From positions 29,068-93,067 of IMG/VR virus record IMGVR_UViG_3300010935_000101: 64,000 nucleotides of DNA; one strand, given 5' to 3'. The translations under genes were made by a program, and so were the position numbers. This document shows positions 43,423 through 48,724 of the stretch, piece by piece (within the stretch, counting starts at the first letter, position 1; each line of letters opens with the position of its first letter). Below the pieces are notes generated by a model. It did no database searches, was not told the DNA's origin, and was given only the letters and a program-made list of their open reading frames with translations. The stretch is from a virus.

Positions 43423-44270
43423 ACTATTGCCTTAACTTCATCTACAGTTGTACAAGCATCTACTTGTTTTATAAGTCGTTGAAATTTACCAATTTGACCA
43501 GCATAAAACACAGAGTAAGCATCCGCTTTGGTGATCACTTTATCTATAAGTTGGGATTTAGTTTCACCATTAGCTCTTGAAGCCAGTAACACATCTATAA
43601 AAGGAGTAGCTGCCAAGTTATCTAATAACCAAGCCCTAGCTTCTTTTTCTTGCGTTGTAAAACTAGCAATTTCCCATGAGGCGGTATCTCCTAGAATGCC
43701 ACGCAGCTCCTTATCTTGTTCAGTTTTTAGCCATATCTTCATATCATTCTTAGCATCTATTATGCTTATATTCCAAGCTGTAGTGTAGAAGTAATGGCTT
43801 CTTAAAAAAGGGTACTCAGATAATGTATCTGGGGCATACTTTGTGCCTTTATTATACCTAGTATCTCCATAACCAATATACATGCCTGTTACTGAGTCCA
43901 CCAAGCAGCATACTGCCCATGAGCCCTCATACCATTTTTCATTCTCTCCGGATGGTGCAGTATCAACAACTAAATACTTATCAGTATTATTAAGCTCTCC
44001 TACATAGTTCCCCCCAGCATCAACACAGTGATATAGTAATATAGGTTTTGGCTCAACTACAGCAGCAATAGGAGGAGTGAAACTGTCTATGAATGCTTCT
44101 GCATTTAAAATCTGCTCATCGTTTAATGGTATATCATCCATCATCTTTAGTGTTGGTTCATAGTAAAAATTTACACCTGTAATAAAACTAGGTTTTATTG
44201 CGGTATCACTATAAAAACCAATATCGTTTATTACAGTTATCTTTCCTTCGACATAGGTAAGTACTCTCAT
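43416..44270 (-). CDS. Tail fibre assembly-like protein
   Basis: C-terminal Q..EA.AW..D..A.TP..D.L..R...KA..Y...G..Q......T..EV.AI.W. Confidence 0.65.
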   Translation of the reverse strand: MRVLTYVEGKITVINDIGFYSDTAIKPSFITGVNFYYEPTLKMMDDIPLNDEQILNAEAFIDSFTPPIAAVVEPKPILLYHCVDAGGNYVGELNNTDKYLVVDTAPSGENEKWYEGSWAVCCLVDSVTGMYIGYGDTRYNKGTKYAPDTLSEYPFLRSHYFYTTAWNISIIDAKNDMKIWLKTEQDKELRGILGDTASWEIASFTTQEKEARAWLLDNLAATPFIDVLLASRANGETKSQLIDKVITKADAYSVFYAGQIGKFQRLIKQVDACTTVDEVKAIVW

Positions 44271-46087
44271 TTGTCATCCTTCATATATACAAATTTTAAA
44301 TTATGAAAAGGTATATTTATGGCTTGTATATGGTAAAAAGCATTTTTTGCATGTTTTTCGTAATGGTAAATTCTTGCTTGTTTTGTTGTGAAAAATATAC
44401 TGTTAAATACACCATCTAAATAGCTATCTTTATGCCTATGTATAATGTCTGAAATATCTAAAATAATTTTATCACCATCCACAGACTCGCTCATTTCTAG
44501 GATTTGATTATAATAAATTCCCTCTTCCCATAAATGCTCTTGTTTAGTTCTTTTCTCTTCACCATAAGTTGTTGCAGTATTTCTAAGCATACTGATTTTA
44601 AGCTCATTACCTGAAAGACTATCCTCTTCACAGTTTGCTAAAAAGTATTTTTTATCCATCTCTAATTTAATCTCATCACTGGACTTAATGCCATATATGG
44701 TTTGAAAGCTAAACTCTTGTGGCTCTAGTGGATATACCTCTCCATTCACTATTATCTTAAATATACCACTCTCATAGATAACCTTGAGCTTTTCGTCGTT
44801 ATCGATAATACTTTGTAACTTTTGTTCCTCTGAGTAAAGTTCAGGAGTAATGATATGGTGATCTCTTTTTGGATATACCTCAGTAAATTTTTTTATGTAC
44901 TTTGGGTTATTTGACAATACAAAATCTTTTACATATTCCTCTATCTCCTTAGTTTCCATCATTGGGTATCGTCTAGGGTTATCTCTATAGAGTGCTCTTT
45001 GAACTCCACACGTATAACTTCTATTAAGTCCTGTCTCTTTGCGGACTAACGAGCAACCTTGTTGACAGTATTTAAAGTAAGGGCAGGTAAAACAATCATC
45101 ACTAATCTCAAGAGTGCTCTCATTTTTCTCTATTACTTTTGTTGCATTTTCTTTTATCTTCGAGAAGCCATCCTTAAATATATTTCCATATTTGTACTCT
45201 GGGTCTGGCTGTGTTCTGTGGCAGGGATACACATCTCCATTCTTTTGTAGTATCAATTGGGTTGTTCCACAATTTTTAACATCAGTACAGTAACCACTTT
45301 GAAACTCTTTGAACCAACCATACTTGATGGCTTGCTCATATGGAGTGCCTATAAATTCTTGCTTTATCTTTTGATAAAACTCTACCATCTCGTCCTGTGA
45401 TAGCATTTCTGTGCCCTCTATCTTCTCTTGAAACTTGTCTTCACTTGCTTTAGAGTCATATCCAAACATGAAGTAAAAGTTTTCTATCATATTAAACCCT
45501 ATCACTTCATGCATGTACCTCAAGTCCTTGACGACTTCATCAATCTTCTCTAGGTGTGCTTTGGTAATAACACAAGACAAGCCTTTGCCATACTTATAGT
45601 CTTTTAATAGGGATATGTTCTTCAGTGTTTTTTCGAGTGTTGAATTGCCTTGCTTATCTACTCTATATTTAGCGTGTAGACTAAATGGTAAATCAAAAGA
45701 ACCACTTACTGTTACTTTGTGCTTACTATACAGCGCTTGCAATTTAGCAAAGTTATGTAAGTTTGTTTTAATATGGATATTAGCCATCCGGACAGATCCA
45801 GCAGTCGCCACGTTTCTTTCTAGACTGTTCTCACTTAACTTATTTGTCATATACTCAAACATTTCAGACAAATATTTTTCAGGTATAGTAGATACTTCTG
45901 CTCCATGCAACTGAAATCTAGATATACCATAACCGGCTTTTTCAATCTCTTGTACAGCCTGCTCTAGTTTTGTGGTTATGTCAGTATGTGTATCTTTATT
46001 ATCTGTAAGGCTACCTAAGTAACAATATTTGCAGCCAAAGTTACAGTATTGGTTTGGCACATATATAAGCGCTATATGTTCTTTCAT
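44267..46087 (-). CDS. Radical SAM/SPASM enzyme with long C-terminal extension
   Basis: CNFGCKYC (CxxxCxxC); SPASM C-x5-C...GDVYPC...CFTC-x5-C-x3-C...C. Confidence 0.92.
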   Translation of the reverse strand: MKEHIALIYVPNQYCNFGCKYCYLGSLTDNKDTHTDITTKLEQAVQEIEKAGYGISRFQLHGAEVSTIPEKYLSEMFEYMTNKLSENSLERNVATAGSVRMANIHIKTNLHNFAKLQALYSKHKVTVSGSFDLPFSLHAKYRVDKQGNSTLEKTLKNISLLKDYKYGKGLSCVITKAHLEKIDEVVKDLRYMHEVIGFNMIENFYFMFGYDSKASEDKFQEKIEGTEMLSQDEMVEFYQKIKQEFIGTPYEQAIKYGWFKEFQSGYCTDVKNCGTTQLILQKNGDVYPCHRTQPDPEYKYGNIFKDGFSKIKENATKVIEKNESTLEISDDCFTCPYFKYCQQGCSLVRKETGLNRSYTCGVQRALYRDNPRRYPMMETKEIEEYVKDFVLSNNPKYIKKFTEVYPKRDHHIITPELYSEEQKLQSIIDNDEKLKVIYESGIFKIIVNGEVYPLEPQEFSFQTIYGIKSSDEIKLEMDKKYFLANCEEDSLSGNELKISMLRNTATTYGEEKRTKQEHLWEEGIYYNQILEMSESVDGDKIILDISDIIHRHKDSYLDGVFNSIFFTTKQARIYHYEKHAKNAFYHIQAINIPFHNLKFVYMKDDK

Positions 46088-46686
46088 ATTTTGTCCCCAT
46101 TAAAAATTTCACCAGAATTTCTCAAATCTATTAAAACTTTAAAATACTCATTATCCCAACTCTTTGCCCTATAGGTATATGGAACACTTCCTCCGGGTAC
46201 TTGTCCTAAAACATAATGTAGAAAATCACAAATGACCGTTGCTTTATCGATGTTATTTTGAAGATACAGTTTCGCTTTTGTGAACATCTTCATTCTAATA
46301 GTATTTTTGTCCTCTTTTGCTCTATTGTAGTAACCGTCAATTAATCTGAATGTTTCTTCTAGTGACAAGTAACCATCAGCATGTCTATCATCTTTGTTTT
46401 GTAAAAATCCATTAGTAAAATACTTACTTAATTTTTCTTTGTACTCTGGCTGCCAAGTTCTTTTAACTTCATCACCAATAGGGGACTTACCATCACAAAA
46501 TCTATGAACAGCCAGTCTCATCATCTCTGGCATAATTGAGTTATCTGCTTGTATTACAGATATTATCTTGTTAAGAGTTTGTGGCTTATTCATCTTTCCG
46601 GAGTCCAAGGCCATGTCCCGTCCTTTTTCTAAGGCAGATATAGCTGTTTTTACATCCACCCCATTTATTTTGCTATTTATCCCCAT
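46084..46686 (-). CDS. Hypothetical protein coupled to the radical SAM gene
   Basis: AAGGA RBS; ATGA overlap with rSAM start. Confidence 0.75.
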   Translation of the reverse strand: MGINSKINGVDVKTAISALEKGRDMALDSGKMNKPQTLNKIISVIQADNSIMPEMMRLAVHRFCDGKSPIGDEVKRTWQPEYKEKLSKYFTNGFLQNKDDRHADGYLSLEETFRLIDGYYNRAKEDKNTIRMKMFTKAKLYLQNNIDKATVICDFLHYVLGQVPGGSVPYTYRAKSWDNEYFKVLIDLRNSGEIFNGDKI

Positions 46687-46697
46687 TGTATTTTCCT

Positions 46698-46802
46698 TTA
46701 GTGATTGCTGTTGTTTGTACAGTTAGTTGTTATACACGTACCATATGTTGTGGTTGTATTTACTACATAACTTAAATTCTCTGCTACTGCTACTGTTGTC
46801 AT
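46698..46802 (-). CDS. 34-aa peptide MTTVAVAENLSYVVNTTTTYGTCITTNCTNNSNH (candidate rSAM substrate)
   Basis: Hand-translated; GGAG RBS 7 nt upstream; fills the gap between flanking genes. Confidence 0.65.
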   Translation of the reverse strand: MTTVAVAENLSYVVNTTTTYGTCITTNCTNNSNH

Positions 46803-46805
46803 ATT

Positions 46806-47309
46806 TTATCTCCATTCATATCTATTGTAATATATATCTCTTTTACAGGCTGGGAAAGAATAAGAACATGGACACCCAGAGCAAGATGCACATAGTGCAC
46901 ATGTGCTGTACCTATAAAGTAACCAGTCCTTATTATCTGCTACCCTATTACCATTCGCATAAGCATAACATTGATTTATGTACTGTGCAGCATTAATTGC
47001 GTAGGCATCAGTTGTGAACCACACATCCATCAATTTGCCTAATCTAGAACCATCTGCTGCCTGAAGTACGCCAGCCCCATTAACGAATAGTTCCCCCTTG
47101 TCTGCATACTCAACTATGTCTCCGGCAGCACTAACAGCGTATGCATCCACATTATTATCTACCAGAATTGCACCGCTATGAACAATAGTCCACGTTCCTG
47201 CAATCTTACGATACACTTTTTTAGCTTCCGTCCATACGCTAGCTATATTTCTGTATACCTTTTTAATAGGAGTCCAAACTCCTGCTATTTTTTTATATGT
47301 CTTTGCCAT
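46806..47309 (-). CDS. Tail fibre tip/adhesin-like protein with six-Cys C-terminus
   Basis: Three YxxIAxxWT repeats; CALCASCSGCPCSYSFPAC; start at ATG 47309 via TAATG overlap. Confidence 0.7.
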   Translation of the reverse strand: MAKTYKKIAGVWTPIKKVYRNIASVWTEAKKVYRKIAGTWTIVHSGAILVDNNVDAYAVSAAGDIVEYADKGELFVNGAGVLQAADGSRLGKLMDVWFTTDAYAINAAQYINQCYAYANGNRVADNKDWLLYRYSTCALCASCSGCPCSYSFPACKRDIYYNRYEWR

Positions 47310-48724
47310 TATGTCATGTACCACCAGTCATTATCTACTCCACCACTTGGTGCGGAAACTGAAACACTTATAGTTCCACCTAACACTTTAGTTGTATCTG
47401 CTGCTGTGGCAGTCGTCGCCAACTTACCGGCTAAAGCAGTGTCAACTTCTGTCTTTGTATATGTTGTAGCTTGGTCTGCTTTTAATACATCCTTAGCATC
47501 TATACTAGCTTTAGTATATGTATCTGCTATACTAAATGTACCATAAGCTACTATATCTACTATATCATTTAGATTAGCACCTAAAGTTAAAGTTATGCTT
47601 GTGCCATTAGTAGCTGTAAAGTCTACTGTTGCTTGTAACTTACCACTATTTAAATATACATCTACAAACCCTACATCATATGTAACATTGAATATAGTTT
47701 GTCCAGCTGTTGCAATATAAACTTGCCTCTCTGATGTACCGTTTACTGAACTACCAGCTAATTTCCATATTGCACCATCATATATTTTCATAAGAAATGT
47801 AGTTTCATCAAACCATAAATTACCTAGTACAGGAGTTACTGGTTCTGTTGGTGAACTTTTATATTGTCCTTGAAATGTATTTAAACTATTTAAGGCACTA
47901 GCTGCACTTGCAGCTGTTTCACCTGCTTTGGTTGTAGCTATTCCTGCCTGTGCTGTACTTATAGTAGCATTAGTAAGAGCATTTAATATAGCACTATCAG
48001 TAGGTTGATTAGTACCTATTCCTTTTACTATATCTGCATATAATGCATCTAAGGTTACTTTGTCTGTAAAGATGCTATCTAGCTTAGCTTTATCAGCGTA
48101 TATACTATCTAACTTGGTCTTATCAGCATATAAACTATCTAACTTTATTTTATCAACAAACAAACTGTCCAGAACTGCTTTACTTGCGTATAGACTGTCT
48201 AATGTTAATTTATCAGCGTATAGAGAGTCAAGTTTAATCTTATCAGCATATAATGAGTCTAATGTTGCTTTATCAGTAAATAAAGAATCTAGTTTTGCTT
48301 TATCAGTAAAGATAGAGTCAAAAGTTAATTTATCTGCATATAAACTATCCAATGTAATTTTATCTGCATATAAACTATCCAATGTAATTTTATCTGCATA
48401 TAAACTATCCAATGTAATTTTATCTGCGTATAAGCTATCTAATGTAGCTTTGTCTGCATATAAGCTTTGCAATACAGCAGACATGGCTTCTAGTACCAAT
48501 AACTGATCTAGAGAATTAATGGTAGCACCAACATTAGAGTACATAGTCTGTATAGAACCATATATACCAGCACCTAATCTTGGGGCATTATCACTATCAG
48601 TTGTTTTACTTACTATGTCATGATAAATACCGTCTGTATATACATCACCTGGTGCACCACTTCCTCTAATTTCCCGTAAAATTTCAATAAAATCTTTATT
48701 TCCGGCCATATCTATACTCCCCAA
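47309..48724 (-). CDS. Tail fibre protein with decad repeats
   Basis: 14 x DKxxLDSLYA; GNLWFD..T..MKIYDG; ATAGQT.F.V.Y..G.VDVYLN domains. Confidence 0.8.
   Translation of the reverse strand: MGSIDMAGNKDFIEILREIRGSGAPGDVYTDGIYHDIVSKTTDSDNAPRLGAGIYGSIQTMYSNVGATINSLDQLLVLEAMSAVLQSLYADKATLDSLYADKITLDSLYADKITLDSLYADKITLDSLYADKLTFDSIFTDKAKLDSLFTDKATLDSLYADKIKLDSLYADKLTLDSLYASKAVLDSLFVDKIKLDSLYADKTKLDSIYADKAKLDSIFTDKVTLDALYADIVKGIGTNQPTDSAILNALTNATISTAQAGIATTKAGETAASAASALNSLNTFQGQYKSSPTEPVTPVLGNLWFDETTFLMKIYDGAIWKLAGSSVNGTSERQVYIATAGQTIFNVTYDVGFVDVYLNSGKLQATVDFTATNGTSITLTLGANLNDIVDIVAYGTFSIADTYTKASIDAKDVLKADQATTYTKTEVDTALAGKLATTATAADTTKVLGGTISVSVSAPSGGVDNDWWYMT
48035..48454 (-). repeat. 14 x 30-nt coding tandem repeat
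   Basis: Three exact copies at 48331-48420. Confidence 0.95.

Follow-up and report, generated by a model that had tools for sequence, protein, structure and literature searches.

A 34-codon open reading frame (ORF) fills the space between two genes of a phage tail-fibre module, upstream of a gene encoding a radical SAM (rSAM) enzyme of the SPASM type. Does this ORF encode a protein and, if so, is the protein a partner of the enzyme? The window (the whole stretch of DNA analysed, 64,000 nucleotides) is part of a 96.7-kb virus record. The terminase is ~27% identical to those of N4-like podoviruses, and the source is an uncultured N4-like phage. The genes concerned are all on the minus strand, in the order tail fibre (471 aa), 172-aa protein, 34-aa ORF, 200-aa protein, 606-aa rSAM/SPASM enzyme, 284-aa protein. 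The following features are referred to below.

47309-48724, minus strand: tail-fibre protein of 471 aa, with LDSLYADK-type repeats; first gene of the module.
46806-47324, minus strand: fibre-associated protein of 172 aa, with YxxIAxxWT-type repeats at its N-terminus; shares the reading frame of the 34-aa ORF.
46810-46813, minus strand: GGAG Shine-Dalgarno site, 7 nt 5′ of the ATG of the 34-aa ORF, within the end of the 172-aa gene.
46698-46802, minus strand: 34-codon ORF (ATG 46802-46800; stop TAA 46700-46698), encoding an Asn-tailed small protein.
46084-46686, minus strand: protein of 200 aa with no assigned function, encoded between the 34-aa ORF and the rSAM gene.
44267-46087, minus strand: rSAM/SPASM enzyme of 606 aa; it has CX3CX2C, the eight auxiliary-cluster Cys that anSME also has, and a C-terminal domain of ~240 aa.

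The LDSLYADK-type repeat region of the 471-aa fibre shows ~70% DNA identity to Roseobacter CRP phage and Mediterranean fosmid phage tail-fibre genes. The phage may be of marine origin, or fibre modules may have been exchanged.

The coordinates of the ORF (46698-46802, minus strand), its translation, the GGAG site and the TAA AAT ATG junction were all reproduced as given in the original prediction, which was made from the sequence. Its placement two genes upstream of the rSAM gene (44267-46087), with the single 200-aa gene in between, was reproduced as well. The stop codon of the 172-aa gene (TAA, 46808-46806) is in frame with the ORF. The stop codon of the ORF is directly followed by AGGA and then by the ATG (46686) of the 200-aa gene, and the 119-nt gap between the two flanking genes is occupied entirely by the ORF. 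The description of the ORF as unannotated holds only in part: it had been predicted by the gene callers of public collections, and a protein collection already includes the 34-aa peptide and three homologues as such predictions. No match to the peptide was found in Pfam, PHROGs or NCBIfam. In DNA of 36% G+C, an open frame of this length is not rare (~0.1, an estimate). The ORF is above chance because equivalent ORFs are found at all three of the closest loci. These loci carry the three nearest relatives of the rSAM enzyme in public data:

L003: rSAM enzyme 70% identical to that of the window; equivalent small ORF of 34 aa.
L179: rSAM enzyme 66% identical; equivalent small ORF of 35 aa.
L180: rSAM enzyme 53% identical; equivalent small ORF of 44 aa.

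Each of the three small ORFs follows a homologue of the 172-aa gene and precedes the rSAM gene, so that conserved small ORFs beside homologous rSAM genes, which had been proposed as the check, do exist. The sister peptides have 32-42% amino acid identity with that of the window. When the four peptides are aligned, eight columns are invariant (M1, E8, N9, Y12, C28, N30, N31, N33), which gives the motif E-N-x-x-Y and, at the C-terminus, the shared end Cys-x-Asn-Asn-(Gly/Ser)-Asn. The three homologues end in NNGNN[SN]; the tail of the window peptide is NCTNNSNH, with four Asn in the last eight residues. The codon alignment of the four loci shows synonymous changes at conserved Glu, Leu, Tyr and Asn codons. 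A Shine-Dalgarno site precedes the ATG by 6-9 nt at all four loci (AAGGA or AAGGAG at the three sister loci, placed as the GGAG of the window), and the ribosome site of the next gene comes right after the stop codon of the small ORF in every case.

The term precursor-like is thus a fair one for a peptide with a conserved N-terminal half (E-N-x-x-Y) and a Cys/Asn C-terminal end. The CxxxxC core that had been proposed did not hold: only Cys28 is invariant, and Cys23 is missing from the three homologues. The feature that links the peptide to the enzyme is the Asn-rich C-terminal tail, which had been overlooked. A profile of the four peptides, run against 1.84 billion representative proteins, recovered the four inputs (E 4e-13 to 2e-8) and no fifth member; a scan of viral contigs with the peptide profile gave no match. 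The peptide family is thus tiny but real.

The 172-aa protein also has homologues at the three sister loci (150-158 aa), where they precede the peptide. Its C-terminus with six Cys (46806-46900) is found in the window phage only; the C-termini of the homologues have one or two Cys and keep a Tyr and the penultimate Trp. The six-Cys end was considered as a conserved substrate and rejected, being absent from the three homologues. The protein has three weak matches to PHROGs of unknown function (E 1e-4 to 3e-3) and no match in Pfam or NCBIfam, and a word-based search returned only the protein itself.

The 606-aa enzyme matches phrog_1802 (E 1.5e-49). It has the features of a family of ~600-aa proteins with CX3CX2C, eight auxiliary-cluster Cys and a C-terminal domain including YGDE..RTKQEH and NAFYHIQAINLPF; the invariant columns were taken from 29 sequences. 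The nearest curated families (NCBIfam) are peptide or protein maturases, namely DynA, anSME, DarW, AmcB, GrrM, HxsB and PapB, and all scores are far below the cut-offs (82.8 bits for a cut-off of 349.45 with TIGR03942; 52.7 for a cut-off of 340 with PapB). The sole solved structure reached by sequence is anSME (E ~1e-9, residues 8-363), with which all eight auxiliary-cluster Cys align. It is also the top fold match of the enzyme model (pLDDT 86; Foldseek E 1e-12, TM by target ~0.7), followed by CteB (second best), ChlB, TigE, SkfB, PqqE and SuiB. Sequence and predicted fold agree that the enzyme is of the protein- or peptide-modifying SPASM type, and the finding is classed with the SPASM rSAM enzymes that have a ribosomal peptide or protein as substrate.

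Residues 366-606 of the enzyme form a well-predicted, strongly conserved and family-specific beta-sandwich. The matches of this domain in a PDB fold search were all generic beta-sandwiches (Z up to 6.6; for the best of them, 114 residues at an rmsd of 3.4 Å), and a fold search of AFDB gave one family member. Relatives of the enzyme were not found in viral contigs by a scan with the single protein; 12 were found by an alignment-based scan.

About 110 loci of the enzyme family were gathered from viral, metagenomic and genomic collections, and the C-termini of the neighbouring ORFs were listed; almost all of these loci have a neighbour on the same strand with a terminal run of Asn. The loci were reduced at 90% identity to 83 clusters, a tail being defined as at least three Asn in the last seven residues. 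An Asn-tailed neighbour on the same strand is present in 70 of the 83 clusters, or ~68 once two false positives are removed; among opposite-strand ORFs, taken as the control, 19 of 4213 (0.45%) are Asn-tailed. Most exceptions are truncated contigs, short fibre ends of the type GNNF/GNNS (Campylobacter-type prophages) or loci that use genetic code 25. The tails are found at 22-70% G+C and have mixed AAT/AAC codons, so selection has acted on the protein sequence, and the tails are no DNA repeat. In the enzyme tree, the loci group by tail type, and the clade of the window is nested in a superclade of phages whose tailed gene precedes the enzyme gene. A Cys beside the Asn run is frequent in the phage members and absent from most bacterial partners. 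No paper on a ~600-aa rSAM/SPASM enzyme paired with Asn-tailed proteins was found in the literature.

On five rumen contigs (L073-L075, L078 and L082), the rSAM genes are broken up by 5-11 TGA codons in frame, each of which aligns with an invariant Gly. When these loci are read with table 25 (TGA = Gly), they encode a leucine-rich repeat (LRR) protein, the rSAM enzyme and a protein of 123-128 aa with ~17 terminal Asn. The pairing thus extends to organisms that use code 25, or to the phages of such organisms.

The 34-aa ORF has the same-strand, Asn-rich end by which the pairing was scored, with a weaker tail than most members. The tail of the window peptide is in fact the most degenerate of all, and the tie to the family comes mainly from the three homologues. 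Within the whole 96.7-kb phage, 4 of 1217 ORFs have at least three Asn in their last seven residues; the 34-aa ORF is the sole one within the rSAM operon, the other three being 55-70 kb away. On this comparative evidence, the ORF is a genuine conserved small gene that is functionally tied to the rSAM enzyme. It probably encodes a translated small protein that is, in this clade, the Asn-tailed partner of the ~600-aa rSAM/SPASM family and most likely its substrate. The ORF, its conservation, its synteny and the co-occurrence of enzyme and Asn tail are direct observations. We infer the role of the tail as enzyme substrate from the co-occurrence, which is no proof.

An alternative that we consider unlikely, although it has some points in its favour, is that the ORF encodes a virion or assembly protein (tip subunit or chaperone fragment) whose Asn-rich end is incidental, the substrate of the rSAM enzyme being elsewhere. 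The conservation of the ORF in one small clade only, the weakness of the Asn tail in the window and the abundance of small ORFs in fibre modules would fit this explanation, as would the conspicuous six-Cys end of the 172-aa neighbour. However, this end is not kept in the three homologues and there is no further Asn-tailed ORF near the enzyme gene. The family-wide pairing with Asn tails argues against coincidence, as do the invariant C-x-N-N-x-N end and the location of the Asn-tailed gene in sister phages, likewise two genes before that of the enzyme.

This last point was followed in the phage superclade, where the Asn-tailed gene encodes a fibre protein and is always located two genes before the enzyme gene. 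The fibre ends include STNNNNY, SCNNNNN, QSNNNW and YYSNNNNG; those of the fibre proteins of L184 and L185 are NCNCCNNN and NCNCDCCNNN. The 34-aa ORF occupies the place of the fibre gene and is therefore read as a detached fibre tip. The fibres have an N-x-x-aromatic motif 20-25 residues before the tail, and its counterpart in the peptides is E-N-x-x-Y, 25-29 residues before the end. A profile HMM of the fibre C-termini, searched against the 1217 ORFs of the phage, ranked the peptide first with a non-significant E-value (0.37). The small ORF is in frame with the upstream gene at all four loci, with spacers of 3, 18, 15 and 27 nt (window, L003, L179 and L180). A frame shared by chance is expected about 1 time in 27, counting the three loci that were not used to frame the idea. 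The stretches between the two genes are as follows:

Window, 46803-46808: 1 in-frame stop.
L003, 1288-1308: 2 in-frame stops.
L179, 983-1000: 1 in-frame stop.
L180, 817-846: 4 in-frame stops.

The synteny, the frame shared by the four loci and the matching aromatic motif all fit an origin by splitting of a fibre gene, and the peptide resembles the C-terminal ~30 residues of a fibre-tip protein, now encoded separately. The proposal that the peptide is a split-off tail of the upstream protein, made in the original prediction, agrees with this: in sister clades, the fibre encoded two genes upstream of the enzyme ends in an Asn tail.

The same prediction had also mentioned readthrough from the upstream gene. 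In this explanation, which we regard as very unlikely, readthrough of the stop codon, or recoding, would extend the 172-aa protein by the 34 residues, the separate start being secondary. The common frame of the four small ORFs with the upstream gene (again, ~1 in 27 by chance) and the fusion of tail and fibre in sister clades could be taken in its favour. It is opposed by the two and four in-frame stops of L003 and L180; a single conserved in-frame stop, as expected of programmed readthrough, is not what the four loci have (1, 2, 1 and 4). Each locus also has its own Shine-Dalgarno site and ATG, the other genes of the phage end normally under table 11, and reassignment of TAA is not known in phages. 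Finally, a chance ORF or non-coding spacer with no product, which the shortness of the ORF and the AT-rich DNA might suggest, is very improbable for a frame that stays open in four loci at 32-42% amino acid identity, has conserved motifs with synonymous substitutions and a ribosome site at each locus, and fills the whole 119-nt intergenic gap.

The preferred reading, that of a translated Asn-tailed partner of the enzyme, was compared with known systems. The best match in both sequence and fold is anSMEcpe (PDB 4K36-4K39; TIGR03942), with CX3CX2C and the eight auxiliary Cys; anSME also handles a protein substrate without an RRE domain. Unlike anSME, the window enzyme has the additional ~240-aa C-terminal beta-sandwich, and its score is far below the TIGR03942 cut-off. 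Its assignment as an anaerobic sulfatase maturase was rejected on account of this score and of the peptide, which has no C/S-x-P/A-x-R motif and an Asn-rich tail instead.

The thioether-forming SPASM maturases of RiPPs (CteB and PapB, ranthipeptides) resemble the locus in having a short peptide encoded beside a SPASM rSAM enzyme and in the closeness of Cys and Asn within the conserved end; CteB is the second-best structural match. NxxcB, a maturase of this type, forms a Cys-Asn beta-thioether. The locus differs from these systems in its NCBIfam scores, far below the cut-offs, in the lack of a detected RRE, protease or exporter, in its phage fibre operon setting and in the wider family, where most partners have no Cys near the Asn run.

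A short gene beside a maturase gene, with a conserved recognition part and a core, is what would be expected of a classical rSAM RiPP (sactipeptide or ranthipeptide). This class was rejected: no RRE or PqqD-like domain, leader protease or exporter was found by Pfam, NCBIfam or PHROG searches in the enzyme or in the 172-, 200-, 284-, 82- and 147-aa neighbours, and the CxxxxC pair is not conserved. A classical secreted RiPP is therefore not indicated.

The locus was also compared with Campylobacter Mu-like phages (for example CAM-P21, MW462221.2) and four metagenomic phages (L004, L183, L184 and L185), which have Asn-tailed fibre proteins. Their enzymes belong to the same family (36-50% identity), the gene order is the same (Asn-tailed gene, one accessory gene, rSAM gene) and the ends are similar. 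In these phages, the tail is the C-terminus of a fibre of 260-690 aa, whereas it belongs to a free 34-aa ORF in the window, and the accessory gene is of a different family. The two contigs L184 and L185, which are phage-like, carry a second radical SAM gene (380-381 aa) directly 3′ of the gene for the ~600-aa enzyme (L184:5811-6956; L185:5813-6955). The bacterial Asn-tailed cassettes have the same rSAM family and follow the same pairing rule. Their partner (116-220 aa) is usually encoded directly downstream of the enzyme and has an unbroken run of 8-30 Asn that terminates in G, R, S or N. The window partner is 34 aa long, its gene precedes that of the enzyme, and its short tail is interrupted and has an invariant Cys. 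Double zinc-ribbon motifs are carried by the gene that follows the Asn-tailed one in gut loci.

In the mechanism proposed, the enzyme encoded two genes downstream in the same operon would bind the peptide; recognition may involve the E-N-x-x-Y half, the C-terminal beta-sandwich domain of the enzyme, or both. The enzyme would then use a 5′-deoxyadenosyl radical to modify the Cys-x-Asn-Asn-(Gly/Ser)-Asn end. The modification could be a thioether to Asn, an epimerisation, an oxidation or a different cross-link. The recurrence of a Cys beside the Asn run in phage members makes a Cys-Asn thioether a candidate. Chemistry based on Cys cannot be general since most bacterial partners have no Cys near the run; in the general reaction, the target is probably the Asn run itself or the small residue that precedes it. 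Because the peptide resembles a detached fibre tip, the modified product probably acts at the fibre tip and not as a secreted natural product. More tentatively, and with clearly less confidence than in the partnership itself, the peptide could be a virion-borne, rSAM-modified micro-subunit that is built into the 172-aa fibre-tip protein, or linked to it covalently, and so belongs to the tip that binds the receptor. If so, it would be the first ribosomal peptide natural product to function as a structural component of a phage, and its 34 residues would give access to a new modification of proteins directed at asparagine.

The 34-aa peptide is most likely the smallest known free-standing partner, and probably substrate, of an undescribed rSAM family. 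The spread of the pairing, from gut Firmicutes and myxobacteria to the tail fibres of phages, suggests a post-translational modification that no one has yet described. Among the partners, most are proteins of 120-690 aa with long homopolymeric Asn runs, which makes them awkward substrates. With its short, non-repetitive tail and its eight invariant positions, the peptide is the natural substrate best suited to working out the chemistry. The new elements are the minimal peptide form, the probable origin by splitting of a fibre tip and the Cys-Asn end that recurs in phages. The findings also indicate that phages use radical chemistry on their fibre tips, with possible consequences for receptor binding, stability and host range.

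The gene that separates the Asn-tailed gene from the rSAM gene differs between the groups. In the window, the C-terminal ~90 aa of the 200-aa protein are homologous to proteins of 93-94 aa encoded at the same place in L003 and L179. No match to the 200-aa protein was found in Pfam, PHROGs or NCBIfam, and an Atlas search gave no usable match. In the Campylobacter phages and several metagenomic phages, the place between the Asn-tailed fibre and the rSAM enzyme is taken by an accessory family of 136-211 aa, with no notable Pfam match:

L001, 4351-4986: accessory protein of 211 aa.
L183, 2523-2978: accessory protein of 151 aa.
L004, 5601-6020, and L005, 460-870: accessory proteins of 136-139 aa.

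This family may act as a fibre chaperone or a recognition factor. When it was compared by hhalign with the 200/94-aa family of the window, the probabilities were non-significant (0.2-29%). In the Campylobacter phage CAM-P21, the gene after the rSAM gene (L001:6712-7122) encodes a DUF1353 protein (PF07087, E 8e-18).
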